64,000 bases of DNA. Origin: Raillietiella orientalis (Eukaryota). A model generated the notes under the pieces. The model was not told the DNA's origin. It ran no database searches and saw nothing but the letters and a program-made list of their open reading frames with translations. Where the stretch lies: assembly GCA_036172245.1 (NCBI GenBank), contig JAYWIR010000059.1, forward strand, positions 310,001 through 374,000, read 5' to 3'. Of the stretch, positions 41,201 through 63,679 are shown one piece after another. How positions within the stretch are numbered: the first letter of the stretch is position 1; the number at the start of each line of letters is the position of its first letter. The translations under genes and the position numbers were made by a program.

Positions 41201-44200
41201 GCAAATGTCCGTTCTGGTCAGTGGCTCTTGTTGAGAGTCAACCAATTTTCGGTTTTCAATACCTTAAAGCTCTTTCAAATTCCGGTTTGACTATCCTGCC
41301 GTTAGTTAGCGATACGAACCCTGACCAGCCTACTCCTGGAGATGGATGCGCGATATCCTGTACTTCGAAATTTCCACTTTTTATCCCCTGGACGAAAGCC
41401 TTCCTAGAGTTAAAATGCTCTGTAATGCAACCCTGCGGGTAAAGTGTACGAGTCAAGGATCGTCATCAACACTGACTAAAGGACAAAATTCTTGAAGCTA
41501 TTTCATTTTATTTAAGAACCCAACAAGTTTTGCAGTCATGAAATCAAGGATCATCATAACCAAGGAAGTGAAGTGTGTCTCTTGGATACTCCCAGATATC
41601 TAAATGAAAAATGCTTTTCTTTCCAAGAGCTGACTTTCAGCTTGCGAAGTTGTGAAAATTGCATTTTTATAGACAAAACGATCGTTTTTGTTCACAATGT
41701 TTGCTTCCTTGGACTGATTTGCTACAACTAAAGAGTACAGTATTAAGCATTTGCCCTTTCGAGTCATATGCAGTGCAGAGGCATGAATTCATCTGTTGCC
41801 TTCGTGGATCTCGTCTCAGAACATTAATAGCGAAATTCGTGATTAAAGTGGCAGATTAGAAGAAGTGAAAGTTGAGGAAAGGTAAAGCTTGAAAAATGAA
41901 AAATTCAAGCTTTTTAAAGTGAATAAGTACTTCAAGCTGAAGCCAAGTTCTCACTTTCGATGTCACTTAAAGTTTGGATGAACCACTTAATCAACTAACT
42001 AGTTTATTGACTCAAAGCAAACAAATGAACTAACCCTCGAGCAAAGTCAAAACTGCAACACTGAAACACAGCATCAATGATGAGTCCATCTCCTGACTGA
42101 AAGTTGTCGGAAACTTATAAACATATTTGATAAACGTATTAAATAAAGGGGCTAGAAGAAATCCGGAAAAAAAAAAGAAATTGCTGTTTAGCTTACGAGT
42201 ACCTACCCGGGTTACTCAGTGAATGAAAGTTCTGTAATGATTCGCAGCGATTCCCACAATAACGGAGTTCCTGAATTGGACGGAACAGAAGATTAAAATG
42301 GAATTCCTCAGATGAAAATTCCCTGATGAAGATGCATTGCATGTTCCATAAGCATATTAGTCATCCGGTAATTTCCCTCGAAGCACGGGAGTCCAGAAGT
42401 GATTTATTTCTGATTTGTTTCCCAGATTGCTCGTCGTGATAATCATTTCGAATGTTTCAGGCGATCTTTTCGACATGCTCCTGCCCATGCTAAACATATA
42501 TCAAGAATACGTCCGCAATCACCACTACAGCTTGCAGGTTCTCACAGAACTGAAACAAAATAATCCTCAATTCGCGGCAGTTCTGAAGAGGAAAGAAGAA
42601 AAGGTCATTTGCCAGGGAAGATCCTTGGAAACGTTTCTGACGTATCCTATGCATCAGGTAAGGAATTGTGAATAGGGACATCACAAATGACACTACCGTG
42701 AACAACAAACGACATTGTAGACAAGAACAAATTCAGAGATGACTGCTGAGACAGTCGAATGTGAATAAGTAGATGACAGTAGCAAATCTATTTCCTAGGT
42801 TTATTCCAGGATCACGGGTGTGGCGAGCGTATTCGTCTCCAATCTAACTATTTCAAAAGTAACAGGCTTCCACATTTTCGACATTTGTTTGTTTACATTA
42901 TTTTACATCACTTTCAACATTTGCAAAAGAACCATTCTTTGTGAAAAGAAGAGCATCTAAAGTGAAATCTCAAAGGAGTTACATGTGACTGCAAAAAACA
43001 TAAACTATAGAAGTATATATGCAGTGTAAAAAGAAATTAAAACGAAATGGTCATCCCGAAGTCTCCTAGATAGTAACCATGAATACGACTTGAAGAGGAT
43101 GCTTTTTTTGTGAGTTTGCCGATGCCTTTGTGCTGCTGGCTATTCGACACATTCATACCCCGGAGTGGGAATGCAAAAGAATCTTTCGAAAGTGGGGAGA
43201 AACAGAGGATTGAAAGTGCATCCCAGCACGAATGCACAGTGCCAGAATCAGCAGCTGTGAATGAGAATAAGGAGAAGAAAAAACCATCAAGACAATAAGC
43301 GAGATTACATGGGTGGTCAAACTGTGGAAGAAGATATTTGAGAAATAAATGCATGCCACAGAAATCTCGTAACAAGACTTTGAATAAAACAAGATGCTAT
43401 CACTGTTCGTTCCTATGCTATTGGTAAATAATTGTCACAGTCATGATCAATGAGAGGCACATCTTTATTTGCTGAAAGCATGCTGCAATTCATCAATGGA
43501 GTGGTCACTCGTCTCTTAGGAGGCCTAAAAAGGATGCTTTATAGATCGTAATAGTAAGTGTCAGTTGAGTGTAAGTCCATCGCTACAATTAGAACTTTAG
43601 AATGAAAAAAATTTGATTCCACTCAGGGAAAAATAAGGCCTTGCTCCATTTACAACAATTAAAGTAAACTGTGGAGGAATTAATACTATCATGTAAGTCT
43701 AAATACTGGTACGTGCCAGGTAGCGCAGTGCATCCTTAAGCATTAGATCAAGAATTTGAGTCATATGCTGGACATAAATTAAACCTCTATCTAAAAGCTC
43801 GGAAGCAGTCAATTCTTCAATCGAAGATCTAGGAGAAAACTTGCCAGAATGAATACAAAGGAAGCTATTTTTTTCAAACTGTTCATTTGATCATTCATTC
43901 TGATCTTGGTTTTGCCGTCAGGAAGCAGTGATGAGCTCGACTCAAAGCAACAAATGAAAATAATCTCCTAGTCGGAATTTAGACATCAAAACAACATCAA
44001 ATAGTGAAATCATCTCCTGACTGGAGGTTGTCGATAACTTTTGAGCATATTTGATAAAATTATTAAATAAAGGAGATAGAATTTTATTCGAAAAAAAAAG
44101 CAGTTGCTGTTGAGCTAACGATTATCTATCCGGGTTTCCCAAGAGTAAAAGTGGAAAAATCAGACTGATTTGGATGTTAAAGCTTTGGCCATTATGCATA

Positions 44201-47200
44201 ACTTGAGCAGATGGCTACAAATATGTTTGGTGACCAGACGAAAACAAACAATTCAACTTGAACTCAATTTGTGAATGGAAAATAATGTTTTCATCCCGAA
44301 ATGCTAATTCCAAATTAATCTTGCATCTAAAGTTTGCTCCATCCGAAAGGAGTTATCTCAAGGCCTGATTGAAAGCTGCCATTAGATGACATTTGGAGCA
44401 CTTTAATATGCCAAAATACCAATCACATGACAAGAAAAGTCTCTCGTGTTCCCAATTGCCGCGCCATCTATTCAGGAAGCTCATCCACAGCACGAGAGCA
44501 ACATGCAAGAGTCGAGTGTGTACCGAACTTCCCATGGTCTCACTCAGAGAAAGGTTTCGTGGATGCATTCAAGAGTTTGGCAGCATTCTAGGATGCTGGT
44601 TCTTCGAAGGCAGACGGCCAGATGCAGACTCCATCGGTTCGATTTTCGTGTGGTCAGGTAGTCATTCTTACAGATAAGAATTGATTCTATGATGACTGAA
44701 AAAAGGACTCGTGGACTCTCTCCTTTGATCATGAATCTTCCATGCAACAGATTTGTCGGGAAGCTATCCCTTCAGAGTCTCAGAGATACGCTCTGAAAAA
44801 TGCTACGCAGGACGTAGCATTTTTCAGAGTGGACCAGGCAGAAGCTGGCGAAGACATGTCTCTCTCAGGAGGACCTCAAGCAGGAACACGAAATCGTGTT
44901 GGGTTTGGTGGGAACTCGGGAAGGAGTAGAAAAGGATGGTGGCACAAAAGAGCACCCAAGACACGAATCGAAATTTCTGAAGCCTCAACAGGGGAAGAGA
45001 ACCTCGACTCAAACCAATGAGTGGCCCTAACCGAAGTGGGGGGCTAGAAACTCGGCAGAGAATCCATAAAAACCATAGATGAGGCACGTATTTGGAGAAG
45101 TATAGTCTCTGGAAGCTGGAATGGTTTACCAATTGTCGTTGTTAATCCTGAATTCAAGTTCGAAGCTCCATACATCAGGTCTGACTGCACCCAATTCATG
45201 CCAATGGAATTCGTGCTGCGTCGAACCTCTTGGGAGAAAAATTGCCAACACTAACAAGACAAATTGGGGGCTTTCTGCAGATCTTATCGATCAGATGTTT
45301 AATTTGCCAACAGGTGCTTCAACAGAAAAGATGAAGATTTATGGAAAAGGCTGAGGAAGACAAGTGAAAGCATCAGTCTGACATAACGTTTCACATTCGA
45401 CTTCACAGGAGCAGGAATTTTTTGAGCAATTGAAAACTCAGCCATATCTAAGGGAGTGAGTCCGATGCCGATTAAAGGATCAAAGGAACGAAGAAGAATA
45501 GAGATGTCCACTCCACAGATTATACCAAACTGTACCAAACCGCAGCAGGCACGGTGATGGATCTGCAGCAGTTCCCTTCAGCAATTATCGCGTCCTACCT
45601 TCTCTCTGTAGAGAACTAGATTCCAGTCCACACATACATCCAAAATTGTACTAGCATTTGGCTATATTGAGCGTTGTCTTCACTAAACACTGGTTTCTGA
45701 ATCCATGGATTCTCTTCCTGGACGCTGTTTTTTTTTTTACAACTGAGACTTAAGGTTGCGTGAGAGCTCAGCAGCTGCTGATACCTTTGCACAACTGTCC
45801 AGCAACGAAGTGCTATTCTTTGACTTACGTGTTTCGTTGAGCTGCTCATTCATTCGGCTTGGTCACATGGAAAAATGCTTACGTATTCATCATGTTCCCC
45901 GAACTTGCTGAAGGCTCCAGCTTAAGAGGTCCTATAGGTCAGAGCTGGAGACAGAGCTAGAAAACGAGTTGTTATATTTCTTTACAAAGTGATGTCCCTT
46001 TGGCGATGCAGATCACACAGAATCAAGCATTCTCAGCTACAAGCTGTTACACATATCAGGCTGAATCCGCGAGATCGTGCCTCAGGGATCACTTCGCGAG
46101 AACAGGGCATGGTGAGTCTCCATTTTTCCTCCCTCTACAAGATGGGGTTTGATGTTTGATGGCCTGCTGTTTGGTGAATGCCAGAATTGGTACACCTTCG
46201 AGTGCTCGGAAGTGTGCCATCATCACATCTCAACACGATCGTTCAGATTATATTCTCCGTCTTAGTACAACAGTCTCCTCTATTTTTAGATTCCTCGTTA
46301 CATCATCATTCTGCACGAACTCCTGGCTCACACTTCTCATAATCACGTGGAGAGGAAAAGCTTGGAGAATGCCAGGAGTCAGCTGGAAGACCTCTCTCGA
46401 CAAATGCATGATGAAGTAAGCTTCTCTTAGTGATTGTCCTCGTTTGAATAATCATTTTTTTTTTTTTTGGCTTTCACTTTACGAGATTTTGTTTATTGAA
46501 AGAGCTGCCGCTGAAAGTACTGCTATCTGCTCTGACAATCTTCATATCTAAAAAGAGCAGCAACTCATACTTTCTCAATCAAGAGACAATAAACTATTTG
46601 AAAGTAAACCACTGTATTCCTCCAATGTCAGTATGTTTCTTGCAAATGGTTCTTTCACTTCGTGTCCCAGGCATTGTAATAACCCATATCCCGAATGCTC
46701 AGAATCGTACATTCTATCAGAACTTAACTTCAATCCGCAACGCTGCAAGCAACACAGAAAGGATTTCTTTTTCTCCAAAATGTTTCAGTAGTAGGGTGTG
46801 CTTGATTTCAATCACCGTCTTGAACAACTACATCAATAGTACTTGCAATGATACAATAATTGCCAATGACATCCTTGCCAGTTTTTGAAGACACCTAAAG
46901 CGTGGTTAATTTGCTTTCAAAATAATACCCTGAACAACTGAGAACTAAAAGACAATCTCAGATGGGGAAAGATCCGTACTGGAAAGCGGAAAACTTAAAG
47001 GAATCTCAAGAGAGCTCCAAAGATGGAACTGCAACTCAAAAAGACAAATTAAGCGGAGAGACAATGAACGTAGCTCAATGGATCTGATCTGCTGACAAGA
47101 TTTCAAAATCCTAGTGATCCCCAAAGAGTGGATTTCAAGTTTCCAGCTTCTGTGGCAATATGTTTCCACTTTCCATCACGCTTAGAGATACCGGCTACTC

Positions 47201-50200
47201 CTATTCTTTTTCTTTAAGCATCTTCCCTCCAATGTTTAGATAGGACATCCAGTGGGACCAAAATCGGACTTTCTGTACGACTTTTGAAGAGGTTTGTCAG
47301 GATAACCCTGATTTTTCCAGACTAAGTAATAGCTTAAAGGAATAATCTTTCGAAGAACAAAGATCAACGTTTGTGCATCCTAATCAAATTTCCATCCTGA
47401 CAAAAGTAGCTTTGTTTTGCAGGAGATAGCAACAATCTGTTCTGCAGCATATCAGGATCACCTAAACTGACTTAAAGCTGTGAAAGAATTTACGAAAAAT
47501 GGAACCTATAGAGATTCCAAAAATATTTTCAGAAGGGAAATGCAGACTGTCCTATCATTATGCAATGAAAGATTAACACTCATGTTGATGTTAGACAGAA
47601 GAGTATCTATGACGAAGGAAATTGCACGAGATAGTAGAGCAATTTCCTTAACAGCTTCAGCTGTTTACGTGATCCGTTCGGGTCTACGAAGATGATCACA
47701 ATTTAATGGCTGCCCACATCGTAGCAAAGAGATCCTAGCCTTCCATAAATACTGCAATTCACGAGGAACTTAGCTATTCTATCCAACAGGAGGTCTCACC
47801 TCATCAAGTGCACCTAACAGGTTTACAAGATGAGAAGATGAACAGCGTTCTCTATTGTCATACGTGGTCATCTCATTGACACGAAGTGAGTGCTGTCAAA
47901 TGAAAAGCAGCATTGCCAAGAAACAGTATATCTCTTGACACAGCCAATGATCATTTCTTGTGGCAAGAGTCACATAATTCTTCAGAAACATTCATCGATT
48001 TGCGTGATGTTAGAGATGATATTCATTTGCTCCCGCGACAATCCGGGCAACTTTAATTTGCCCGAGAGACGTTTCCGACAGTGAGGAAAGATAAAGTGGA
48101 CAGCTGCTAAGAGTGAAATAGAATGGCAACGGAATGGAACAGTCCGCAACATTCCATATGTCCTTTTCCATCAAATCAGTCGACGAATAGATAGCAGTCA
48201 TTCAAAACAAACAAAGGTCTCAAGGAAGTGAATTGATTATTTCTTGTCTAAAACCTTTCGGTGTGACCGCTGAATCATTGATGCAAAATCTTTCAGGTTA
48301 GCGAAACAGAGAATATCCGAAAGAATCTGGCCATAGAAAGGATGATTGTAGAAGGATGCGACATTCTGTTGGACTGTTATCAAGTATTTGTTCGGCAAGG
48401 TTGGTATACACTTGAGATATCCTCCCTCTAAGAGCAGGCGAAGCCGAATTTCACCTTCGAGGCTCTCTAGAGAGTTTATATAAATATTCCAGTTTTTTTC
48501 CATCAAATTTTTTTTTTTTTTCAGAAACTTTCACCTTTTCATGCATTCATATGTTCAGCAGCCCGAATGGCATGCTGAACATATGAGCGGACAGCCGCCG
48601 GAAAAGCAAGTCCAGAATAAGAGCGTAGGGCACAGACAGTTCCGTTTCCACTGCTACAACATTTTTTGGATAATACCGCCAGCAAGCTGGTCACGTGGCT
48701 CCTTGGACGAACTGTCTTCAGCAGACTCGTAGGATAGGATTTAGTCAATCCCTTCTCATGATATGATACAGTCTTTCTCATTTATGAATGGAGGCATTCT
48801 ATAAATTGTACATACCAGAACGCGGCGAATACTATGAAGTAAGGATTGCAATGAGAAATATGGATAGAGATACCTGGCCAAAAAGACTCCAGGGAATCAT
48901 TGAGAATGCAACAAAGTCTAAGAAGTAAGCATGTAATAAAGAAAACGATGTGAAATCGAAATTGCTGTTATGGAGAAGAAAACCTCTGACATGAATTTTA
49001 GACTCGAAATGATGTTGCTTTTTCATCTTAAGGATGAGAGCATTTTTTCTCAAATCCAACTTTAATTTTCCTCGCAAATGCAGTCTTGTATGCAATGACC
49101 TTGCAACTTTGATTCAACTGATAAAGCAGAGCATACGTAGATCGACAGCATCATATTATTCGAAAGAGAAAGTCTAAAAATTACCATCTATTTTCAAAAA
49201 GACTCTACAGTTACTGCAGCCTGCAAACTTGAAGGGAATCTACTAAATGATCGTCGATTCCAACCGAGAAACATTGAAGCTCAACGTAAAACAAGTGCTT
49301 CACTTTTCGTGGAAAAGCATGTCAAATGAAAGAGAGACACAGAGGAAAATCAGCAGAGCTGCCATCCCATCAAAACGATATCGATCCAAAAAATTAATTC
49401 GTGGTGGCCATCCTTCTATTTTAAAAAGAACCGAAAAAAAGGATCAAATCTAGAGAACGCTGAGAAACAGAGAAAAACCTACTGCCTGGATGTACGGAAA
49501 AAAGCCTACAGACGCGCACTTGGGATGCCACCCAGAATTTCAGAGGGAGCTGCAACCTAGACGGGTTCCATAATATCCATTATAATGTATTTAATAACAG
49601 GGACACAGGAAAAGGAAAGCAAAAAATGCTGGCTGGTATCGAGCAGAAAAACAAATCGTTTTGTTAGTTTTCGCTGATGTAACCATGGTAGGAAGATTTC
49701 GTTTTAATGAATTATAGCCAAGGAACTGAGGAAATGAAATCATGGAAAAATTAACTGAGAGAAATGTGCACGAAACGGAGTCATTCATCGTGCGGAAAGG
49801 AAATCCATGTTGATAGTGTACTCTATAAAATACATAACGGTGGAGTTCGTGGTGAATGCAGCTCCATCAAAATCGGTTCGGAAGACGCTGACAAGATAAA
49901 TATATGCCTGGCTTGAAACTGCACCGTCCATCTGAATATTTAATGCCTTCAGGCTATGGACATTGCAGCGACTGGATGGTGTACCCAGTTTTCCTTCTTG
50001 CACTCTTTTAGGTTCATCCGTAGCGGAATTCCTCTGAGTTGCACCCACTTTTTTTCCAACCCAACTTTTGGTTTTCCAGTGCCGAATGTCGAGGAAAAAT
50101 GCTTGCGTCTTCCGTTTCAGATTGCTCTCTGAAATCTTGCAAGTAACTCAGGAGCTCACATCGAGCTCACAGTTACGATCACGATCACGTGTTTCCCTGG

Positions 50201-53200
50201 TTTGAAAGAAAGGACAGATCGCCACACAAAAACCGATTCGGTTGATAGGTGACTGAAGCCGTTGCAACAAAACTAACCAACAAGATGAAACAGGTAATCC
50301 AAGTCGAATCCTGGAAGAAGTTGATTTCATGAGACAAGAAAATAAAAGAGCTAATCAAGTTGCATTTCAGCTACTGTTAAAAAAAAAACGCAGCAATGGT
50401 AATCAGACTCTCGTCAGGCTAATCAATTTCTTGGAACACACGGAGACCAAAGGTGCTCCCAGTTTTTTGTTGGTTGCTTATTTTGAAAAGTGGGATATTC
50501 GAACCATAAATCATTGAATCCGACATTGAACTCTCTGAGAGCAAAGCGCCTTAATCCCTCTGTTACAGACTCGGACGTGCGACTTTCAGATGTCATTTTA
50601 TTGTAGAGCAAACTTGACTAAGTGGACAAACGATAATTCGATGGTGTTCGAGATGAAGGGTGATCTTCGGATAGAATTCAATGATTTTTCTCTTCCCGAT
50701 AAACAATTCAGATGCTGAGTTGATAGCACAGGAAATCCATGACTGCTCTCATGGCAAAATCGGCGGATCCACACCAGCTACTGATCAGTTTTCGTTCCAC
50801 TTTAATCATCTTTTGGAAGCACTCGTTGAGAAGCACGTCAAGTGACCTCTGTACAGCACAAGCTTTTTCAGGAAGGATGTATTTCACTTTTTTCCCCTCT
50901 TCTTCGATCAAATTCAAATATGCATTAGAGAAATAATTAAAATGAGATGATTCTGGAGAAAATCTTCAGAGTTGTACTTGGAATCAAAGTTCTTCTCGAC
51001 TACTCCTTGTATGGAACTGGCGAAATGAATCCCTCATTTTTGCTCAGAGTTTTGATAATTCTTGACTATTGATCAGGATCGCAAACGAGGATCGGACGAG
51101 TACTAGTGAATATGATAGACGGTAAATAACGAAAGGAGCTGCACCAGGCATCCTGGCCATTTGTTCAAAAACTGAATTAGCATGGAATGCTCGATAATTC
51201 AGTAAGTAGGGGGGAAAAAATCCCCTAGAAAATCACGTGATTTGCACTTGGCTGCGCTCACTTTCCAGAATTCACTAAGAAATTTCAAATGTTCCACACT
51301 AAACTCCTGTAATTTTGTGGTGTCTCTTGATGACCAGTTCACAGTTGATTTTGCTTTCAGGGACATTAATTCAAATTATTCCTCTGGAGAAGCAGAAACG
51401 AGGGCTAGGCACATTCAAGCCATCAGAAAGAGAGGCGATCCGCCAGTGTTTCTTGTTCACGAATCATTTAATCTTAACAACAAGGTAAGAAGAAGGGGTG
51501 TATGTTCGTTCACACTTCACGGGAGAATTCCTCCTAGAGTCGAATGGGAGTAGTCGCGGGACCAATTGGGTTTGACTGAATGACTTTTAAATTTCAAGCG
51601 GTCACTATCGAGGGAACAGATGAGAGAAAAATGGGATTCGTTGATTCGCGGTCCAGCACTTAGGATTGCACTCTGAAACAACACTTGCCGATTCCTCACG
51701 GCTACGGGAATGCAACGCTCATAAAGATTACTTGACAAGTGCCTGCAGAGAAACGTCTCTCAGAATTCCACGTGTATTCAGATGGCTTAACTTACCGATT
51801 TACATTGCTGCTTTGGAAAGAATGTGTGGGAGGGCGTGAAAAAAGGAAAAAAATACATGAACATTGGTCCAAACAATCTCAAGCTGTCTTGAAGGCTGGG
51901 TTTCGTGCTTCTCTGAAACTAATCGCGACTGAGGGGGCTCACCCGATGTGTTTTCAGGCTCCTTTAGAAGATTATCAAAAAGTGCAAAAATTGGCACTTG
52001 GCTTTCAACTCTACTTCGAAGCAAAAAAAATAACGAAATCACTTAAAGAAATTGCAAATCCAGAAATGGTAAACCTCCTTGTTTAGTGTACGCCCCTTCG
52101 CGTGTGGCGATCATTGAAATTTGATAGCAAAAAATTCACATCTCGATACTTCACATTCGTGACCAGAGAATCCGAAAGTGAAATTACGCGCTTTCGTTGT
52201 GCATCACTTTTGACATCTCAGGTAGAAAAACAGAGTTTGTCAGAAGGAGGAAATTTAGACTGCTTGCAGATCTGCTTGAATGCGCGCACTTTGGAGGAGG
52301 AATCCGTGACGTCACTTTGAGATGTTTGCTTGTTCGCGTAAGCGCAAGGATCCTTCACAACGTGCACGTCAAATTCCACTCTAAACAGCTGACCTGCTCC
52401 AAATCTTTCGATAGAATTCTCAGCTACCGTCCAGCTTCGACTGTTCTCTCAACAGATCGATCGACGTCAATAGAACTACAACTTGCATCACTATGAAACG
52501 TAAGGTGTGCTGATTTAGAATCCTTCTCTAACCTGAATTCAATTTCAACCACTTCCTTGAGCACATATCTTCATAGAGTTGCACGTAATGAGAATGATCT
52601 AGCACAAAAGCTTGGAAGCATTTTTGGGATCTCGAATATTTTTCCCAGTCTTTGCCTAGTTCCTTTCCTAGATATCCTCAGTACTTGAAGACATCCCGTG
52701 ACTTCGAAACGGAGTTTCAATAATAATCAAAGTCGAATATCTAAAAGAATAAACAAGATCACGATAAAACTGCTTACTCCTCCCCAATGAAACTGATTCG
52801 TGAATAATCGTCCTCTTAAGAGATTGAGACTTTTGTTCAAATCATTTCATAAGACCCAGTTCATGGGATTGGAGAAGTCGTAGACACGCACAGCGTCACA
52901 CGTGCACCAGAATACTGAAGAAATCTCTTACCGGCCCTTTGACTAAGATCAAAACGGATCGAAGGGAAGGCACCTTCCTTTCCGATTTGGGTGTCCCACG
53001 ATCGTACGCGGACAAGATGAGGTTACTTGTGGTTGCCTCGTGCATCCGCACACCCGCGATGCTTACTGGACCCTCGGCCTGGGAGTCTACTAGATGATGC
53101 CAAAAGTTTCCTACGATCACAGGAGGAAAATGTAGGGGCACAACTCTTTGAGTAGGCGGAAAGCATCGTCGAATGTCAGGAAACGGAAAGTCCCAAGAAG

Positions 53201-56200
53201 TGAGACCCGTGGTGACTTCCCTTTGAAAGCTCGTTCATCATGGAGGAAGGAAGATGGGTAGATTTCGAAGAGTTCTCTTCCGTTGCTACAGATTGCATCT
53301 CCTTTATTTACAAATTGGAGTTTCGCGAAGCCGAACGATAGTCTGCTGCTTGGAAAGCACGCAGATCACGGCCCGTGTCGGCGGCCGTGTGGCTGCGGTG
53401 GTTACGGTCTCCGGCAGGTGGCACCAAGGGTCGTGGGTTCGAATCCCCACGTGGAGGATTGAAACCCCGAGACACAGGCGCATCATGAGTTTCGAGCCCC
53501 CTCCTTAGGATAATGCTTACTGGCCCACGCGCTTCGGGTGTGGCACAGGTGGAAGCCGTTGACTGGCCTGGATAGGAAGTTGACCTTTCCAGGAAACATT
53601 CGACATTCCCTTCCGGTTGTGAAGATGGAGCCGTTCACCACGTACCATGGAGCTGGTTGATACCCCCTTCGGAGAGTTGCCTCTTCAGAGTGTCAGAAGC
53701 GTGCTGCCCCCTTCGGGGAGCGACCCTTCAGAAAAATTGGGGAGAGTCTCTTCGGTGTTCTCTTCAGAGGAACACCAACAAGGGGCGGTTCGCTTGCGGG
53801 TTCCCACAGGAGAAGGATCGGAACCTTTCCAGATCCCCTTCGGAGGAGAAATGAGCAGCGACCTCCCTCCGAGGACTCCTCCAGAGAGAACAAGGAAGAG
53901 GTTCCCTTCGGGGTTTATTCTTCCTGGATTCAGGTGGCTCCTGCTAGGTTACCGTCTATAACTTGAAGAGCTACACGCATCCTCGGGTGACTTAAGCAGC
54001 GTGAAGAGCTCCGTGAGCCCCTAGGAGAACATCTCTTGACTATTTCGCGAACCAAAGGAAAAAAAAAAGCACTCAGATCTGAGCAGTGTCCAGACTCATT
54101 CACTTTTGCCGATTCGGAATGGTTTTCTCGTTCAAAGATTCCTTTCGGAAATAAGAGCGTGGCAGCGCTGAGATTACAGTAACACAGGCGAGCACATGGA
54201 ATCGCCATGCGTATCAATGCAAAGCGGAATAACTTCTGTAGTGTTGCTGAGAAGAATTCCTACCTCTGGGAAGAATTGATTATCATTCTGAGTACAACCA
54301 ATGCCTCAAGCACGTCCCGCCAAGGAAAAACGAGTGCCTCGACGTTGGTCCAGGTCAGAGAGGACATGCGGAAGGCTGAAGGGATAAAATTTGGAACGAG
54401 GCTTTTGTGAAAAAAGTTGCACTGTCGGGAAAGGGATAAATGCAGGCAACACCTAATTGTAGTATCTTCTGCACTGGAGCATTTTCTGAACTGTTGCTTT
54501 AACTGAAGATCCATGGGGATCGTTGCCTCTCACTCCGAAAGTACAGCAACTTCCAGATGTTCTTGTAAGCGACGACTCGTGTTTAAGAACTTCGCTCATA
54601 GGCTCTTCGTCCTTCCAATGCATGCTTTTTTTTGTTTCTTTTCCTGGAAATGAGTAAATACAGTATTGATGCCACTGTCCTTTCCTGCCTCATCCCGTGG
54701 TACGAGCTCTTTCGGAAATTCTTGACACTGTTCCACCGAGCCTGACTAGGCAAAGTTTCCGATCTACTGTGGCTCCCCGTTTCGGATTCCTCATTCTTTC
54801 GACAGATGACTCCGCTTCACCGAGATGCTTTCATCAAAAGTAAAGTTGAATTCACAGTAACCTGGGGGCCAGTCTCCCATAGCTTGTCCTCTCTTGTAGC
54901 TACAAGGCTTCGTTTCACCGCCTCCGGTTCATTAGCGACATCTGAACGATACACCTATCCCCCCATTTACGCGGTACTTTATATACGCGGTGTCAATTTA
55001 TGCGATCTCATTTTACGAGGTCTTTGACAACGTTTTACCTATTTTTTTTTGACAACTTTTCATCGAGCTCTTTATATTTATTATTATTACAATTTTGAAC
55101 TCATCAATGCTCAATAATACGTAGGAAGAGAAAATCTGTCTTTGGGTATGGAAATAGAAATTTTAAATCGACTTGAAAAAGAAAAACCTTCATCAATTGC
55201 TAAGTCGTGTGAAATAAACGAATCCGCTGTCCAGACACTTCAAAAAAATGAAGAAAAGTATTAAAAGCAGTGTGCCATCTCGATCTTTGGAAAGCTCAAA
55301 GTGCTCTTATACAAGAAACCCTATAATAGAAAATATGGAGAAGGCATTGATGTTCTGGATTGAAGACAATACTCAAAAGAAAATACCCATGAGCATTTGC
55401 ACTCCTATCTGAGCACTTTTTAGAGGTTTGGAGAGTCTTTTGGAGATGTGAAAAACGATGATCAGGAAGGGAAAAAGACATCACAAAAGTCATGTTTCGA
55501 TTCCTTCCTCGTAGTCCGTCTCCTGTTGGGCAGATGACGGGCATGCTGAGGACCATGGATCATGATATGCAGAACGCGCTGCGCCAACTAGTGCCTAATT
55601 TACATCTCAACCCATTATGCAGAGCATAATAAAAAAAACTACGTAGAATTTTTGAATCTTACTAATGACTTCATAAAATGCGCGTTTGCTTCTGGGTCTG
55701 AGCACACTAAAACTTCCCCCTTTAAAAAAAAACAGCAACAAATGAGGTCAGTTTCGTTTCCAGTTTCGTTTTAATCATGTTCCTCTTAAGAATTCAGTAG
55801 ATATTTACTTTCATAGGTATCTTTACTAGAGAAAAAATGAGGATGGATAAAGGTAGCACTAACGTGTATGCATAGAATTTTCTGATTCTTCCTTCCTACG
55901 GACTCGTGCCGATTTCTAGACGTAATTTCTTCGAAAACATGCCTACCAGTTCGAGGATGCTAGAGCACTCCAATTCAGAATGCTGATGCACCAGAGGCAG
56001 ATTACACAAATTGTACTAATCTCCTTTATTAAATATGCTCTTTGAAAGGAAATTCCTGTTTCCATTGCAACTGACCAGTGGATCATTAGAATTGGAATCT
56101 CCTATGACATGGTTCATAATCTTCACAGCAATCTACTTTCATTTATATCTGCCACCTTCTTATCTGTCTGATCAGGAATTTCGTCTTTGTACTGTTTTAT

Positions 56201-59200
56201 TTATAGCATCCTTGTTTGCAGTGCTGTCAGCAAATCCCATCAAAACGTGAATCATCACAAGGAGGAATCTGCGAAACCCGTCGTCTCATCACAGCACGAG
56301 CAAATTTAGACGTTCTACGATTTGAATTGCGTTTCCAAGGCAGGTTTCTGAGCTGAAGGCTTCCTTATATCGTTTCGTCATCTATCCTGACTTTCATCAT
56401 TCCTGCCTTATCTCTTTTCTCGTCCAGCAAGCAGTGTGTCGGTTTAAGAACAAACCAGGTTTTTAAAAACATGCACTGCAGTGATTCATGTTTGCTTGTT
56501 TCCACTTGCAAATCGAATCAGCTACCACTCAATCCTGCAAACGTCTCAACTGCAGGAACTTTTCTCATGGACACACCAATACCAATGAAAGTGCAGCCAC
56601 TGGAGTGAAGCTTTCCATGTACTCTTCGTAACTTATTCAAGGTTGATGCTGCTGTCCAGAAGATGACAAGGAAGCAGACGTGCTTGTTCCAAGCACTTGT
56701 TGCTCTCCACATTTTCGGTTTTTAATTCCTGTCGATGCCATATGGTTATAGAATACAGTGTGACCAGTAAAAGGGAAAACACTAGTGTAATGGGGCACAT
56801 ATTTAAAAGCTTTCTCAATTGAGTTTTCACTTGAAAGCATGCAGATTTTCAAAGTGGTCTCAGTGGATTTTTAGCAGCATGTCTTAAATCTTGCTATGAA
56901 TTTCCAAATTTGCAAACAGTGCAGAATGGAGTGGTCCTTGTTTTCCTTAGTTGCTCTTCGCTCTTTCTCACTACTCTACAGAACCGATCTCCAGATGGCT
57001 CCACAGCTTTAGTCATGTTAGGCATCTCTTGGTATATGAGTGAATAAACCATACAGCTCATTGAATTGTTCTCAAGAAACAGCAGGAGGAAAACAGATCC
57101 TTAGTGACAAAGAAAACGATTTGCACATCCCGTTTCTATGTAATCTCAAGCTGATCATTACAGTTCAGAGAAATGAGCATCAGTGGAAAAAAAAAAAAAA
57201 GCCGCTGTAATTCAGCAGTGTAAAAATCAGCACCAGCTTTCAGAAAAGAGATTGGCTAATTTAAGCCACTTGTGGGAGAATTTATTCGGATTTATTCAAA
57301 AGCAATCTACTTTTGCATCTGAGTGAGTACGTCATACTGCAATTAATCTTCCACGAAAAGAAAAGATGCTTCACAAGAATAGAGAAGCACAAGCCGAACG
57401 TAGATGATTACAGCATATAAATGCAACTGAAGTGAGAGATCGAACCCTCAGAAACTGCTCGAAAAATCCGAAAACTTTTCAGTCATTTGGAACTGCACTA
57501 CTCTGCGGTCATTCCAGAGAACAGCCATAACTCTGATGGATACCATTTCCCACAGCTCTCATGACCACCAATTGGAATAGAGTTATCTGAATGGACTCTT
57601 GCGGAGATTCGCTGAAGACTATCAACAGCAGCAGCTGCAGACCATTTGTTGATGAGAAAGATATGCGTGCAAGGCATCGACTTTATCGCCCTTAAGGGAG
57701 TTTCGACTATAGAAATTTCAATTCCAGGAAAGGTTTCTCTTTAGTTCCTAAACGGAACCCAGATAACAAGTATCCATACTCCTATGCATTTGTAGGACGT
57801 GGTATTGAATTTTTGTGAAAAGGGGCTTTGGAAGACTTTTCCGTGGACACAGTAGAGGGCTCCCTGCTTTGTGACTCATTCGTTAAATACCTCAAGGACG
57901 TCATGTCTCTCCCTTAAAATGTGACATTTTCCTTTCATGGGTTTTGGTGAGAGCTTTGAACTGGAGTTATTTCGATATGATCACGTGCTTCTTTCGCACG
58001 GATGCTTTCTAAATCTGGAAACTCGTGTTACGTTCCTGTTTGGATTTTGATGTTTCCTCGAATCATCAGCTCCGTGTCCTTCATTTATTCGCACACTTCG
58101 AGAGCCGTGATACTATGAAGCTGCTTCCAAAGATTAAAGCCATCCAGGAGATTGTTCGCTGTTGCTATTAACGATCTCTAAATGCTCCTGGATAAAAGCT
58201 AATTTTTCCAATTATGTTTGGGGGACAGGAGAGGCAGGACTCGAGTGCTTTAGTTTGTTGAAATGTAAACTAAGATTTCAAGAAGTAAACAAAATTCAGG
58301 ACGACAAACTCTACAGAAAAAAAGGGTAGTTCTGATCCTTAAAGTGACGAGGAATCTTTAGGCCTGAAATTTCCCGACAAGAAATATTGCATCCTAGGAA
58401 TTGTGGTTCAACCTAGTCAGTATTCTTTGAATACAACCAGTAGTAAAACATATTTTCAGTAAAGGAGAGGTTGACTTTATGTTCGTTCTTTTTGTGAGAG
58501 AAAATAATGAATGGAAATTTGTCGCTTTTTTATTTCTTAAAGCACTTAATCACGGGAAAAGAGAGTAACTGTTCAGTCAGAAGCATCGAGAATCGCACAA
58601 TTACTGCCTCAATCGGTGTTTCCAGGAACGAGTTCAAAAAATGCTCTAATCTGGAAAAATCAATAAAAGAATTGTTCAATGAAGTTTCTTAAATTGCATG
58701 TGCTTTGCGATGCTCCTAAGTGTGGAGTTTCATTCATAAGATTCCAGTTACCAATCATCTCATTTGTCTTACTCAGGTCTCAGGGAGGCAGACTTCATCT
58801 CGTACCTAATTACGGGAAAATACCTTTGGCCAATGTCACGCTAATTGAAGAACCAAACGAAAGTAATATTCAGGATGAAGACAGAGGTGAGATTTCGAAT
58901 GCTTTGTTTGCGGATTTTCCCTGGTGGTTGAACATCTTGCAACTTTCGGCTTGTCGCCATTTTGGACTGAGTGCACTCTTTCTGAAACAGACGAACCCCG
59001 TAGCACCAAACATAAGAACGATAGGATTTCTCAGAATTTTGGAGATAAAAAAAAGTAAAAAGAAAACGAAAACAACTTAAAGCATCAGTTGATCATTCTT
59101 TTTCATATGGATGATTCAGTGGGGCAGTTTAATTTGGATGACGAACCATGCTATCAAGATTTCAAAAGATTATGACGGTGAAGACCATGAGGGTATATTA

Positions 59201-62200
59201 GTGTGACCAAACGAAATCCCCTTTATGAATAATGTGAATACATTTAATGGAGGTTGATGTAGAAAAATAGGAAACACGCGAAAGTTTCCTCCGATACATT
59301 TGTTTGCTGGCTTTGTCCCTAATTTGCTGAAAATTTGAATTTTCAGTAGTTACGTTCTTTTTTCTCTCATTAAAGTGATGGCTAATTATGATGCTGCTGT
59401 GATTAAACAGTGAACATGCACTGTCAAGTGATGTATGTTTATTCGTCGTTAACCTCGCTGCTTACTTTTCAATTTATACATCGTCATTATGCTCTGCTTG
59501 AATTCTACCAGGAGTCTGAATGTGCTGAAATGTTCCCACATTCCTTAAAGAAGAGATATAAAAAAAAGCTGTAATCCTATATTTAAATGAACTCTTTTCA
59601 TTTTTAAAATCTGTTTCATTTTGAAAAATCACCTCCGTTCCTCCCACTGTTTAATTTTTTGTCAAACAAAATCTCCACAGTGATCACAGTTCACAGTGCT
59701 CCCGTGTCTTCTAGATCCTAAGACTGCAGATACCAGGAATTTTTTGTACAGCAATAGCTTGGAAAAGTGTTTGAGACAAAAATGCCAATAAATCACCGTT
59801 TCCATGTTAACTAAAATTCGGGAAAGCTGCGCTCGATAAAAGTGGACTCGTATTTTTGACGTGCAGCCTGGGAATTGCCTTTGCGACATGGTTGCCTAGA
59901 GAAAACATTCATCATACTTATCAGTTCTATAACCAATCCAATTTATGTTCTTCTGTCCTCAAGAGGATTCTTTCATTGTATTACAGAGTGCATCTTTCAA
60001 CAGGCCTTTTGATCTTCCGAATTTGCATCTCGGAGAAGGCTTATCGCAAGCATTTCTGTTTCTTCCTTCATGGATCACCCTAGGGTTATCATGTAGTTCT
60101 CAGTTGCATTATCTATTTATTTTTTTTTCCTGCGATCATATTTACTCAGAGTGCTCGTCCTGTCAAACTTGAAGTTTTTGATCTAGGTACTCTTGTCAAC
60201 TTCTTCACTTCATGGAACCTACCTTTTCCTACTGTCAATTTTCACGCCTGCTAACTTCGCAAGACTGTTCTCCCCAACTTCACTCCCTAACCCATTTGCA
60301 TTCTTTTCGAAAAATTTCACCATGAGCAATTTGAGAGCATCTTCAGAGGACAGCAGGGATGGCTGCATGAACCGTTGTCCCAAAATCTCTTATTTATCAG
60401 CGCAGGATTTTGACTCCTTTCGGACTCCTTTCGTCTCCATGGTTTTCGCAGAATTTTTCTTAATTTTTACTTTTTATCGTCGCGCGAGACGCCACCGTTA
60501 AAAATCTGCCTCGCGTGTTTTCACATCAGCAAATGGGTTCACATTTTCTGCGCAGTTTGAATGCCATAATGTGCCTCTTGCTTATAATGCTTCGGAAGGA
60601 GACATCTGAAAACTTGCCACATTTCTTGCCGAGCTGCTCGGATCGTGCCCTTGCCTTGACTTGGCTTACGAGGTTGTGTACAATTCGATTCTCATGGATC
60701 CCAAGACCTTGTTCTTCCAGCAGTTTTATCACACCATGCTCAAGCGCCAACCTTTTTGAATGTTGAAAGACGGATGAGACAAATTGCCCTCGAGCGAAAA
60801 GTTGAAGCTTCCATGTCCGGTTTCCTTTTTGAAGCTGTGACACAGCGTTCTTAAAGAAATATTCACGTAGCTACCAGAAGCAGATATGTTTCCAATAGGT
60901 TAAGGATTGGGATTCAAGGTACACTTCTTAGCAGGAATGTTGGCTTGTGCAGCAGTCAAACTTTAGGAATGGCTGTATACGTGTGAAGGATCGCACGAAT
61001 AAGTGGATAGTGGACAAGTGATCACACACGATTCTTAGAAGTCAGGAAGAAAATATTGGTTGAAAATTCAACAGTGGCAAACGCACTGGCGCCTCTGATT
61101 TGAGGCAAAAACTGAAAAGACGAAAAGACCTTTGAGCAAAATGAATTCAGATCGGGAGGACAATAAATAAAGAGTTCAGCGTTGGTAGGCACCCTGCCAA
61201 TTCTTTTTTTCAAAAGACAAAAGAAATCAATGAAATCCCTGTGGGAAAAATCCTCAGAAGTCGGCTAAGAGGTTGAGTATGAGAAAAGTTCCAGGCTGCT
61301 AGCTTGCAAACAACTTATTTCTTCTGATGACCAAAGAGTTATGATGCGGTATTTGCTTCGAGAAATGAATGAGGAATCGAAGGACGCAGACATCGAGAAG
61401 ATGTGATCCGGTGAGGCCAGACCAAAGAGCTCAAAGGACACAGCAACCATCAGCTGTCGCCCCTAAAAGGCAAAACTCTTCCTCCATTTGATCCACTGTG
61501 CAAGAGCTAGTGAAAGAGGAATAACTGGATTGACGGAGATCGTCGGTCTACAAGTTTCTGTGAGTTTGGAAGTTCCCGCATGCCGTGGGAGTGATAAGAA
61601 GGTTCTCTTACGACTGAAGAACGAGAGGAAAGCTTTAGATGAGGTATGTTGGTCCACGCACAAGACAACCCTTGAGAAAATTGAGCTGTGGATGCAAGGG
61701 CACACTCTATTCTAGACAACTGACACATTGGGAGGCTCAGGACTCGTTTATCAACTACTCATTTCTTTCTTTCTTTTTTTAAAGAGAAAGGCCAGTGGCA
61801 ATTTCACTGGGAGATCGTTACTATTGGCCTAAGATGATGGCAATCCTTTTGGGTTCCTCTGTTTTCGCTGCTTTCCTCCCAATCTCTTTTTTTGGTTCTC
61901 AAGGAGTGCTGAAGAACCGTCCGCCTCTTTAGGGAAAGGTTCACAAAGTTCTTTAAACGCCGTCTGAGCCACCCGAGGGTGCGTTTAACTTCAGTTAGGG
62001 GGCAACCTCGCAAGGACCACCCTATGAATACAGGAAGACTCCGGAAGGAGTCTGTTCCACTTGAGCTTGATAGGGAGCGTCGAAGGGAACCTCTTCTTTC
62101 TTCTCTCCGGAGGGATCCCTCGGAGGAGGGTCACTGCTCATTTCTTCTCCGAAGGGCACCCGCAAGGAACCGCTCCATGTTGGTGCTCTGAAGAAAACCC

Positions 62201-63679
62201 CGAGGGGACCCAGTTTCTATAAAGGAATCTCCGCTCTCCGAAGGGAGCAGCTCGCTTCTGAAACCCTGGAGCTGGTTGATAACCTGGGCGTTTCAAAGGG
62301 ATGGTAGCAACCATCTCCATGGTACGCGATGTATGGGTCCATCTTCACAACAGGAGGGGAATGCTGAAGCCTCCTCAATTCCTGGAAGGACCCCGGAGGA
62401 TCAGATTCCAATCCCAGCTGGTCAGTGAGGGCATCCGATTTCCGGCTCCCACCTGTACCGCACCTGGAGGGCGTGGGCTAGTCAGAGTCATCCTGCGGAG
62501 GGGACTCGAGACCCACCACGCGCCCATGTCTCGGGAGATTCGACACCCCGCGACGCGTGGTGCCACGCGCGGAGACCGCAGCCACGCCCGCTAACGCGAG
62601 CTATTCCTTTGCAACAGCGCAGAGGATGAATCCAGTAATCTGGAGATGGACGAAAGTTCTAAAGGAATTTCGAGAGGTTGATGATGCTAACAAGTTTTGG
62701 GCTCCCCGAAGAGGAACGGAACCACTTCGTTGCATGGACTGGGAACATGCTTGGAATTTCTTCTGGTAGAATTCACGAGATCATCACAAGTGAAGAAGCA
62801 CTCGCCAAACAACGGCGAAATGGTTGTCGGAAAACAGATGCAGGAAAGCCATTCTTCCACGACATAGCGAAACCTGGGAAGAGTTGGCCTCTGTTGCAGC
62901 AAGTGCACAACGCAAAGGCAGGATTCCTGCACTGGACCGGAGGACGTTTCCAAAAGTTTTTCAAAAATCGAATCATTCCGGTTCTCTTGGATTTGCTCTC
63001 TTCTTCCCAAGTATTCTCCTCATGCATGATGTTTTCGAAGCTGCATTTTTCCTACATCTGCTTTCTGTTCATCCCTTTTTTGTGCTTCATGAAACACGAC
63101 TTTCTTCACAGCTAGAGATCCAATTGCCGTTTTTTTTTTTTTTGGAAATTCTTTTCAAGATTGCCATTTGCCCGATAGAATGGCATCACCCCCTTTTGTT
63201 CCTAAGAAATTCTCAGCCACCCAGTTTTCGGACCAATGATTTTTTTCCCTTCCCAGTTTCAAGATGAAAAATGAGTCAGTGTTTCTTGCAGAATCTCTGT
63301 CCTCTACATCGAGTCAGTCGAGTGAAGGAAGCGTCGCCACATCTTCAGGAACTTCACTTCAAAGGGATCATCAGAATCTAGATTTCAAGCTCCTGGTTGA
63401 CCTGAACAATGGGTCAATCCACTCCGTTCACTTGGTAGCCATCAATATGCAGGAGAAGCAAGCCTGGATCAGTGACATCATTCAGGTAACTCGATTGTCA
63501 GTCCTCGGAGTTGACCATTTCCTCTCCAGTGCGTGGATAACATACAGTTTTACTCTCTGCTACATCGCAACTCTGGTGAATTTTCAGCTGTGGCTCTTCC
63601 TCATTCGGTTCGCAATGATCCAAAGCTCTTCAAAGATGACGTTGACATTCGCTTCAGCAAAACACTCAATTCATGCAAG
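1961..63679 (+). CDS. RASGRF: RasGRF-family Ras/Rac guanine nucleotide exchange factor, multi-exon, 3'-partial (12 coding exons, 661 codons in window: PH1-CC-IQ-DH-PH2-start of REM region)
   Basis: The spliced exon chain is one uninterrupted frame with GT-AG junctions and matching phases (0,2,0,2,1,0,0,1,2,1,0). Motifs match vertebrate RASGRF1/2 as I recall them: [108 protein letters not shown]. Confidence 0.97.
7031..7137 (+). CDS. RASGRF: RasGRF coding exon 2 (C-terminal part of PH1)
   Basis: Acceptor cccgtttc[37 protein letters not shown](S) includes the terminal PH helix Trp; donor GTAAGG at 7138; phase 0 to 2. Not in the ORF track. Confidence 0.93.
10495..10700 (-). pseudogene. Possible LINE RT relic
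   Basis: [26 protein letters not shown] resembles the iNG...RGVRQG RT motif; a weak YADD-like remnant lies near 10500-10515. Confidence 0.4.
16193..16631. mobile_element. Terminal fragment of a Tigger/pogo-like DNA transposon or MITE
   Basis: Ends ...GAGATCCACTG|TA, i.e. TA followed by CAGTGGATCTC on the other strand. Subterminal direct repeat CGCGTTATACGAGTCC at 16193-16208 and 16594-16609, variant at 16562-16573; AT-rich interior. Confidence 0.6.
16840..16866 (+). repeat. (GAA)9 microsatellite
   Basis: Nine perfect GAA units. Confidence 0.95.
19340..19640 (-). pseudogene. Possible Tc1/mariner-superfamily transposase relic
   Basis: Frameshifted SVM/WACI (cf. SVMVWGC) followed by QQ/GAPP (cf. 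QQDGAPPH) in the expected order on the - strand. Confidence 0.4.
22851..22998 (+). CDS. RASGRF: RasGRF coding exon 3 (coiled coil)
   Basis: Acceptor gcatttcc[51 protein letters not shown]; donor GTGAGT; phase 2 to 0. Confidence 0.94.
23106..23137 (+). repeat. 16-bp tandem duplication
   Basis: ACTTTTTACTTTGACC twice. Confidence 0.9.
26200..26480 (-). pseudogene. Possible piggyBac-like transposase relic
   Basis: [15 protein letters not shown] (cf. MSRxRFxxxxxxLRF), LLRP and ESIDESLM (cf. SIDExM) in the expected order across frames. Confidence 0.35.
26933..27138 (+). CDS. RASGRF: RasGRF coding exon 4 (IQ calmodulin-binding motif)
   Basis: Acceptor ttttgttgttta[10 protein letters not shown]...[41 protein letters not shown]; donor GTTGGT; phase 0 to 2. 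Confidence 0.93.
30529..30850 (+). pseudogene. Decayed pogo/Tigger DDE_1 transposase catalytic region
   Basis: Ordered frameshifted motifs YSGEDL/NTDEHGL (cf. NxDETGL), [15 protein letters not shown] (cf. CxNAxGEKL), [21 protein letters not shown] (cf. LLxxDN) and PPN. Confidence 0.7.
34440..34669 (+). CDS. RASGRF: RasGRF coding exon 5 (DH/RhoGEF domain, N-terminal part)
   Basis: Acceptor tttgttt[78 protein letters not shown]; donor GTAAGT; phase 2 to 1. Confidence 0.95.
35167..35217 (+). repeat. 12-bp tandem repeat CATGTGATAGCT, about 4 units
   Basis: Three exact units and one degenerate unit are visible. Confidence 0.9.
42009..42215 (+). repeat. ~200-nt diverged direct repeat, copy A
   Basis: Shares GACTCAAAGCAA, CATCTCCTGACTG, AGTTGTCG-like, CATATTTGATAAA, TATTAAATAAAGG, an A-run, TTGCTGTT and CCGGGTT with 43939-44136. 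Confidence 0.85.
42461..42657 (+). CDS. RASGRF: RasGRF coding exon 6 (DH domain)
   Basis: Acceptor aatgtttc[29 protein letters not shown]...[11 protein letters not shown]; donor GTAAGG; phase 1 to 0. Confidence 0.96.
43939..44136 (+). repeat. ~200-nt diverged direct repeat, copy B
   Basis: Colinear with 42009-42215. Confidence 0.85.
44791..44829. repeat. Perfect 17-bp inverted repeat, 5-nt loop
   Basis: CTCTGAAAAATGCTACG-cagga-CGTAGCATTTTTCAGAG. Confidence 0.95.
46290..46415 (+). CDS. RASGRF: RasGRF coding exon 7 (DH domain)
   Basis: Acceptor tattttt[44 protein letters not shown]; donor GTAAGC; phase 0 to 0. Confidence 0.95.
46640..46860 (-). pseudogene. Possible LTR-retrotransposon RT C-terminal relic
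   Basis: [13 protein letters not shown]...LQCLGHEV resembles RLxxxGLxLxxxKC...YLGHxV; no intact YxDD seen. Confidence 0.25.
48297..48399 (+). CDS. RASGRF: RasGRF coding exon 8 (DH end / linker to PH2)
   Basis: Acceptor tctttc[36 protein letters not shown]; donor GTTGGT; phase 0 to 1. Confidence 0.95.
49965..50670 (+). pseudogene. Decayed non-LTR (LINE) reverse transcriptase fragment
   Basis: Ordered degenerate RT motifs: LDGVPSF (cf. GxDGxPxEF), VSLV*KKG, KPIRL (cf. RPISL), [16 protein letters not shown]...RS...LLVAYFEK...INH (cf. QxGF...DxEKAFDxVxH), GVR. Confidence 0.55.
51361..51484 (+). CDS. RASGRF: RasGRF coding exon 9 (PH2 domain)
   Basis: Acceptor ttgctttcAG; (G)[40 protein letters not shown](R); donor GTAAGA; phase 1 to 2. 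Confidence 0.93.
53368..54068 (+). mobile_element. tRNA-derived SINE-like element, ~700 nt, copy 1
   Basis: A box TGGCTGCGGTGG at 53390-53401, B box GGTTCGAATCC at 53436-53446, A-tail at 54059-54068. Target-site-duplication-like flanks AAAGCACGCAGATC (53354-53367) and AAAGCACTCAGATC (54066-54079). A colinear homolog lies at 61887-62602 on the - strand. Confidence 0.85.
54952..55395 (+). mobile_element. pogo/Tigger-type DNA transposon 5' fragment with degenerate transposase N-terminus (CENP-B-like HTH domains)
   Basis: TA followed by TIR-like CACCTATCCCCCCATTTACGCGG and subterminal TACGCGG repeats. Frameshifted translation from ~55123: [51 protein letters not shown]...[27 protein letters not shown]. 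Confidence 0.85.
58777..58886 (+). CDS. RASGRF: RasGRF coding exon 10 (PH2 domain)
   Basis: Acceptor ttgtcttactc[38 protein letters not shown]; donor GTGAGA; phase 2 to 1. Confidence 0.92.
61887..62602 (-). mobile_element. tRNA-derived SINE-like element, copy 2 (inverted, diverged)
   Basis: The reverse complement shares ordered blocks with copy 1: GTGGCTGCGG, CCCGAGACA, GCCCACGC, GTTGTGAAGATGGA, CGTACCATGGAG, TCAGAAGCG, CACCAACA, CTTGCGGGT, AGAAATGAGCAG, GAAGAGGTTCCCTTCG, CCTCGGGTG and terminal GAACCAAA plus A-run. Pol III boxes are degraded. Confidence 0.85.
62610..62850 (+). pseudogene. Decayed mariner-type transposase N-terminal (HTH) fragment
   Basis: [17 protein letters not shown] (cf. 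RWxxxFxxGxxxxxD), [12 protein letters not shown] and AKWLS (cf. RWVP), in order across frameshifts. Confidence 0.5.
63292..63485 (+). CDS. RASGRF: RasGRF coding exon 11 (Ser-rich loop and end of PH2)
   Basis: Acceptor gtttcttgc[15 protein letters not shown]...[36 protein letters not shown]; donor GTAACT; phase 1 to 0. Confidence 0.92.
63530..63679 (+). CDS. RASGRF: RasGRF coding exon 12 (linker into REM domain)
   Basis: Acceptor tttcctctcc[13 protein letters not shown]...[21 protein letters not shown]; donor GTAGGA; phase 0 to 0. Confidence 0.94.

Follow-up and report, generated by a model that had tools for sequence, protein, structure and literature searches.

The 64,000-nt window analysed here (positions 310,001 to 374,000 of contig JAYWIR010000059.1, Raillietiella orientalis, assembly GCA_036172245.1; window positions are used throughout) contains an insertion of about 700 nt with a tRNA-like head and a body rich in the hexamer CTTCGG, and it raises the question of whether this is a retroposon or the trace of a structured RNA. 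The earlier note took it for a heavily structured Pol III RNA, either an unusual SINE family or retrocopies of an undescribed structured non-coding RNA. The unusual, long SINE family is retained here, and the heavily structured RNA and its retrocopies are not: the element (copy 1) is probably one dead copy, cut short at its 3' end, of a tRNA-derived SINE about 874 nt long, which is old and lineage-specific and lies in an arthropod genome.

Copy 1 and its genomic setting

Copy 1 occupies 53371-54068 on the + strand, shows an intact 5' end, spans consensus positions 1-779 and ends at the internal A-tract of the family (54054-54068, + strand); its identity to the family consensus is 85%. As had been proposed, it is flanked by a 14-nt target-site duplication (TSD), whose 5' copy (53354-53367) is identical in 13 of 14 positions to the 3' copy (54066-54079), both on the + strand. 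The start moves from the 53368 given previously to 53371, with three extra nucleotides (53368-53370, + strand) between the 5' TSD and the element, and the supposed A-tail is the internal A-tract, beyond which complete copies run on for about 95 nt. The two bases after this A-tract match the family sequence and the TSD alike, which gives a 5-nt microhomology: the first five bases of the TSD are identical to those at the A-tract boundary.

Exons of a host gene, probably RasGRF-like, lie on the + strand upstream (51361-51484, with an open frame and splice sites) and downstream (58777-58886) of the element, so copy 1 is intronic and in sense orientation. The gene is named from an exon at about 22.8 kb that matches RasGRF proteins, the named matches among the best 120 of 196 being from arthropods; the two flanking exons presumably belong to this same gene, to judge by their similarity. 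A nematode host, which the splice sites had suggested, was rejected in view of these arthropod matches and of the absence of an SL1 match, which says little on its own. RasGRF-like exons are found on the + strand at 22777-23001, 46289-46416, 48297-48400, 51361-51484 and 58777-58886, with multi-kb introns. The window shows a GC content of 43%, against 51% in a genome sample, and contains a direct repeat pair of 150 bp, 78% identical (42065-42213 and 43988-44136), which is unrelated to the SINE. ARAGORN and Rfam (gathering score) gave no match anywhere in the window, and lower-threshold Rfam scans of copy 1 and 10 other loci gave only scattered, non-recurring sub-threshold matches.

Copy 2

The second copy reported earlier is real and lies on the - strand, from 62601 to 61787. 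It is full-length except for one missing repeat unit, is 85% identical to the consensus and is antisense to the host gene, probably in the next intron after that of copy 1. Between 61893 and 61787 (- strand) it shows the A-tract, a 3' domain of about 95 nt, a terminal hairpin (61830-61790) and a T-run, which are absent from copy 1 beyond its stop point. An A-rich tail follows (61761-61786, - strand) with a possible, weak 8-nt TSD, matching 62603-62610 in seven of eight positions.

Copy 2 also contains, at 62268-62281 (- strand), the 14-nt perfect complement of an upstream arm, as the earlier note had observed; the perfected palindrome is shared with locus L017 and also seen in L163. Its reading as the remnant of an ancestral stem does not hold, as the perfect complement occurs in only three of 101 copies. 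The consensus keeps unit-type sequence at this site, so the palindrome was perfected secondarily, and its perfection in copy 2 looks derived rather than ancestral. Template switching can perfect a palindrome in one step, as described for RNA genes in PMC8794818. The three copies thus indicate that a non-selective route to stems exists in this SINE family.

The tRNA-derived head

The head of copy 1 (53371-53456, + strand) shows a tRNA-like D-arm and T-arm, and its best parent, although not a certain one, is tRNA-Arg(CCT). The consensus head matches the tRNA-Arg(CCT) of this genome in 48 of 79 columns (61%; score 61, best shuffle 47), narrowly above the threshold of SINEBase, which asks for 60% or more identity with a tRNA, 5S or 7SL RNA across 60 nt or more. 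Among individual copies, tRNA-Arg(CCT) is the best tRNA in 13 of 34, and the Arg isoacceptors together in 20 of 34. The tRNA-His likeness suggested before finds no place here: tRNA-His ranks 16th of 36 tRNA types for the consensus and is best for none of the 34 copies.

Of the two Pol III boxes claimed for copy 1, the B box is clear (53436-53446, + strand), but the A-box region (53381-53393, + strand) is degenerate and lacks the invariant T8 and A14; among copies with a base at these positions, position 8 is C in 29 of 41 and position 14 is T or C in 41 of 42. A second B-box-like motif (53488-53499, + strand) is a weak candidate for a partial duplication of the tRNA 3' half, with a tRNA score of 41, under the 95th percentile of the shuffles (43). 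The consensus contains no TTTT, a condition found in 13 of 500 shuffles (487 have one), and this fits Pol III read-through. Taken as indications only, the B box and the missing TTTT, beside the degenerate A box, suggest that source loci may have been transcribed by Pol III.

A 5S or 7SL module in the consensus was rejected (sense-strand p = 0.49 and 0.11); the antisense 5S score has p = 0.01, as one of four 5S/7SL tests. In the genome a single 7SL gene is clear (C7:953877-954173), and 5S genes are dispersed, frequently as inverted pairs about 1.3-1.7 kb apart. Arthropod 7SK (RF01052) has no match in the genome, nor on the SINE copies.

The tandem body and the tetraloops

All six CTTCGG hexamers listed for copy 1 (53532, 53667, 53711, 53750, 53838 and 53906) are present, as are the CCGAAG at 62149 and 62238 in copy 2. 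Their number in copy 1 exceeds chance, as had been asserted: none of 2000 dinucleotide shuffles of 701 nt contains more than three, with a mean of 0.32. Window-wide, CTTCGG occurs 30 times against 23.6 expected, which is no enrichment. The statement that the hexamers mostly close short stems fails, since only those at 53711 and 53906 close a stem of at least 3 bp. In the whole-copy ensemble the tetraloop forms only at 53906 (p 0.32-0.61; 0.03 or less at the others). The hairpin at 53711, cut out alone, folds in a shifted register, and the stem cited at 53532 has a G-G mismatch beside the loop.

The body of copy 1 (53570-53995, + strand), which contains five of the six CTTCGG, is a degenerate tandem array of a unit of about 40 nt (self-alignment E = 1e-10). 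The unit occurs about 12 times and shows the layout C-rich arm, YYCG loop, G-rich arm, second CCYYCGG sub-repeat and purine linker. Eleven loop sites are spaced 30-44 nt apart (mostly 38-44), with two gaps of 72-75, and nine of the 11 are YYCG. The cUUCGg, cUCCGg and cCUCGg loops come from this degenerate array of a palindromic unit. The unit explains both the hairpin density and the insertions and deletions of whole hairpins, which the earlier note had described correctly and which are caused by loss or gain of a tandem unit; 36-43 nt are missing from consensus 440-530 in 13 of 81 copies, many with the same breakpoints.

Two loci show further duplications: in L027 a unit of about 42 nt is triplicated almost perfectly, by recent slippage, and in L004 the 3' region is tandemly duplicated. 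On the antisense strand of the consensus, one frame is open over 217 codons, which is probably compositional.

Size and age of the family

The searched genome comprises 210 Mb in 491 contigs. A search with copy 1 gave 3182 candidates, 40 of which were scored. In 40 evenly chosen 10-kb stretches (400 kb) there are 19 matches, about 16 elements, which cover 6,935 of 400,000 bases (1.7%), and the family comprises roughly 8,000 copies or fragments. The duplicated loci L040 and L156 were excluded before counting, and L012, L015 and L023 were also left out from the 3'-end counts onward. SINEBase sets at least 100 copies and a short (<1 kb), interspersed element: more than 100 distinct copies were retrieved, dispersed over many contigs, with a consensus of 874 nt (including the first base) built from an alignment of 77 copies.

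All copies examined are old. Identity to the consensus shows a median of 85.6% and a maximum of 89.7% among the 77 copies, and none of the alignments longer than 150 nt among 24 further loci exceeds 88.6%. The tree of 68 copies is star-like, with a terminal length of 13.4 against 0.97 for internal branches. Genome-wide searches for two exact motifs found 19 and 24 places, all of which were retrieved and none of which is young. Among 101 copies, which include those at the 19 and 24 places and sample the candidates in part, there is no source gene near the consensus.

A distinct head marks a subfamily that includes L046 (from 2284, - strand), L192 (from 3638, - strand), L205 (from 8950, - strand) and L210 (- strand, from 6169); in three of these four members internal deletions join the body or the head to the 3' domain.

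3' ends and insertion

In complete copies the 3' part runs from the A-tract at consensus 766 through about 95 nt closed by a hairpin, and a T-run and an A-rich tail come next. Among 43 ends of full length, 24 of which were selected on the T-run, T's follow the hairpin, and 39 of the 43 have at least eight A in the next 30 nt; of the 19 ends not selected in this way, 14 show at least three T and six at least four. AATAAA, sought upstream of the terminator, is absent within 60 nt in all 43 ends, and absent from the consensus. Among 53 ends of copies not selected on the tail, 20 are at the A-tract, 15 at 816-855, four at full length and 14 elsewhere; copy 1, which stops at the A-tract, belongs to the first class.

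TSDs with at least eight matches are found in nine of 35 copies with both ends, compared with 3% of 1,190 control pairs, and the other 26 show no clear TSD. None of the 20 A-tract ends runs into LINE sequence, whereas at least five of 22 ends at 816-840 do. Self-priming from the terminal hairpin as a source of the 816-840 ends was set aside, because LINE 3' ends join the SINE at 820 in five loci. The search for a partner LINE that has its 3' end in common with the SINE gave none within the one LINE family covered: the 30 best reverse transcriptase loci are all L1-like, with a 3' UTR that shares nothing with the SINE tail, and tail-only matches are truncated or interrupted SINEs.

Those 30 loci (L123-L152; for example G000:C71, C96, C114, C33 and C53) are one young family with long open frames, and frequently sit in clusters, at spacings of about 5.5-6 kb, on small contigs or close to the ends of contigs. 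No telomere repeat, as a telomeric role would suggest, was found in six contig stretches.

A LINE that inserts into the SINE

A non-LTR element that ends in a short hairpin after AATAAA joins the SINE repeatedly at the same positions: 173-174 in antisense (six loci), 820 in sense (five loci), 70 in sense (three loci) and 654-656 (two loci). Site 174 is occupied in L173, L159, L014, L058, L010 and L166, and site 820, above the score threshold, in L045, L218, L221, L227 and L230. The six inserts at site 174 range from 48 to 1089 bp and differ in their 5' ends, and are therefore independent insertions. The bases beside the 3' end of this LINE vary with the target. The LINE copy at L174 contains a reverse transcriptase, which we take from its motifs to be of Tx1/L1 type. 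The reading of the inserting element as a DNA transposon with terminal inverted repeats was rejected, since the motif is present at one end only.

One end motif of the LINE has 515 exact matches genome-wide, of which 40 were sampled from the first 100 listed (L242-L281). Six of these 40 (15%) are followed by SINE, four of them fitting site 174, against 1.7% expected (p = 6e-5). Recurrent insertion of this LINE is also seen in further repeats, among them the coding regions of LINEs.

A possible history of the family can be outlined. One or few source loci would have been transcribed by Pol III, and the RNA copied by an L1/Tx1-type reverse transcriptase via target-primed reverse transcription. 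Priming on the 3' A-tail would give full copies; the commoner priming site would be the internal A-tract, and in copy 1 a nicked T-rich target may have primed there, inside the RNA, with a target end that matches 5 nt of it. After insertion the copies would decay neutrally, whole units being lost or gained between direct repeats and palindromes occasionally perfected, possibly by template switching, and the Tx1-type LINE would later have inserted at fixed sites in many SINE copies.

Selection on the RNA fold

The covariation analysis proposed with the structured-RNA reading was carried out on 94 copies; alignments shorter than 150 nt were excluded, and the 24 pattern-selected loci were left out of the terminal-hairpin test. 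Twelve of 13 helices show neither covariation nor excess pairing. Substitution in stem and non-stem positions is 0.174 and 0.168 for G/C and 0.137 and 0.137 for A/T, and two-sided stem changes number 80 against 68 expected over 4,812 cells. Nor are the UUCG loops preferentially conserved: depending on the site, 16-37% of copies retain CTTCGG, and the average hexamer is retained in 31%. Measured against the refutation criterion given with it, the structured-RNA reading finds no support. In dead copies the fold is not under selection and decays neutrally, which is a weak test of the source. Three observations stand on the other side: helix u2 is an exception (p = 0.002-0.004), with three of nine contributing copies sharing one shifted variant; CpG columns in the loops are a little less mutated than CpGs elsewhere (p = 0.02), and the loop TT gives p = 0.11-0.22; and the stems are unit-specific, which could reflect selection on the source RNA. 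This last signal is the summed stem length of cognate arms, 51 against 39.9 once arms are exchanged between units (p = 0.003, or 0.09 for the outer pairs alone). As arms pair better with their own partners than with swapped ones, the stems took shape in the source lineage, through either selection or template switching; selection on the source RNA is neither shown nor excluded.

Folding energies give a similar picture for the two strands. Copy 1 has a somewhat more stable fold than its shuffles (z -2.84, 20 shuffles), head and body windows on the sense strand fold no better than shuffles (z -0.54 to 0.02), and the whole consensus gives z -2.28 and -2.19 for its two strands, without asymmetry. 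A comparison of extra-stable DNA hairpins, looked for on the antisense strand, found no difference between strands.

Alternative explanations

The alternative that survives best, although we regard it as rather doubtful, is a selfish SINE in which selection favoured the hairpin array because it aided the element's own movement, through RNA stability or LINE-protein binding, and not because it served the host. It would account for the source-lineage signal in the cognate arms, for the growth of the array to about 12 units and for the recurrence of unit-lacking copies, and the neutral decay of dead copies is no test of the source on which such selection would act. Unit-lacking variants and the internally deleted subfamily (L046, L192, L205 and L210) have spread as well, which makes the array dispensable at least in part, and the lack of strand asymmetry in folding likewise argues against selection for mobility.

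Less probable still are retrocopies of a host-serving, BC1-like structured Pol III RNA, with a hairpin array selected in an existing or former source gene; we consider this unlikely. The tRNA head, internal A-tract, unique 3' hairpin and U-run end do resemble BC1, folding is better than in shuffles for the terminal hairpin (z -2.95) and likewise for region 660-765 (z -2.12), and the T's after the hairpin with A-rich sequence beyond them, the missing internal TTTT, the better pairing of cognate arms and the YYCG loops at most sites all agree with it. Against these stand the absence of a locus near the consensus among the 101 copies, the absence of Rfam matches at gathering score in the window (elsewhere only sub-threshold, non-recurring ones), the antisense strand, which folds as well as the sense strand, and the palindromes perfected without selection in three of 101 copies, by a process described in PMC8794818. 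Thousands of copies also suit a SINE better than pseudogenes, judging by the families set out in PMC3531059. That the family descends from a functional Pol III RNA of about 870 nt in this arthropod lineage has a low probability. It is a long shot, too, that this RNA would have carried about a dozen YNMG-capped hairpins as a multivalent protein-binding scaffold, with a U-end adenylated without AAUAAA. We are similarly sceptical that it would be BC1-like and several times larger, its source gene having been missed because it kept evolving or was among the unscored candidates.

Hammerhead retroelements such as schistosome Sm-alpha and the retrozymes are known, and the GC-rich hairpins and recurrent 3' end points would suit a ribozyme-bearing retroelement of hammerhead or HDV-like type, but this is very improbable here, as there are no hammerhead core motifs and no Rfam ribozyme match, a loose HDV-like descriptor also matches 19 of 40 shuffles, and the A-tract and, in part, LINE insertions account for the end points.

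The preferred reading, a tRNA-derived SINE, has its own difficulties: the A box is degenerate, the search for a partner LINE among the L1-like loci gave none that has its 3' end in common with the SINE, a clear TSD is missing from 26 of 35 copies, and a length of 874 nt is above both the <700-bp wording and the 75-662-nt range given in SINEBase (PMC3531059).

Comparison with known systems

The family adds one unusually long SINE, undescribed as far as the literature shows; a literature search did not turn it up, which is weak evidence. SINEBase, as presented in PMC3531059, lists 175 families with a maximum of 662 nt. The family is also a clear case in which tandem duplication and palindrome perfection mimic a selected RNA fold. 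In two features it goes modestly beyond what is known of such elements: its terminator-before-tail end without AATAAA, and its role as a landing site for a Tx1-type LINE. Only a conserved and expressed source gene would give it greater importance.

BC1 RNA has an internal A-rich region and a 3' hairpin and is linked to ID elements. The SINE shares with BC1/ID a tRNA head, an internal A-tract, a unique 3' hairpin and a terminator-like T-run before the tail, but is about six times longer than BC1 and has no conserved source gene among the copies found. BC1 RNA is tRNA-derived in the account of PMC4233971.

The T+ SINEs (B2, Dip, Ves and Can), as characterised in PMC9599045, likewise show a short T-run directly before the A-tail, here in full copies; compared with that description, the family lacks AATAAA (none in 43 ends), has a hairpin before the T-run and stops earlier in most copies. 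In the survey that PMC9599045 gives of them, T+ families are reported only from placental mammals. Tailless retropseudogenes, in the description of PMC5322556, are likewise truncated at defined internal single-stranded positions with TSDs. Tx1 in Tx1D and Tx1-Mar in Mariner-N4_AMi, two cases treated in PMC4494074, are also independent 5'-truncated insertions at one nucleotide of a repeat; here, compared with the cases described there, the target is a SINE body, the 15% (six of 40) is under the 20% specificity threshold, and other repeats are hit.

SINE bodies are known to come in some cases from the 5' parts of LINEs, according to PMC5786205. The closest architecture is that of the quasi-oligomeric SINE CHRS, as outlined in PMC3531059, with a tRNA head, a non-coding body, an A-rich end and thousands of copies. 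In CHRS, too, on the same outline, a degenerate motif occurs more than 10 times in the body and variants differ in the number of units, whereas the unit described here is palindromic and about 40 nt long, against about 20 nt in CHRS, and belongs to a family with a degenerate A box in an arthropod host.
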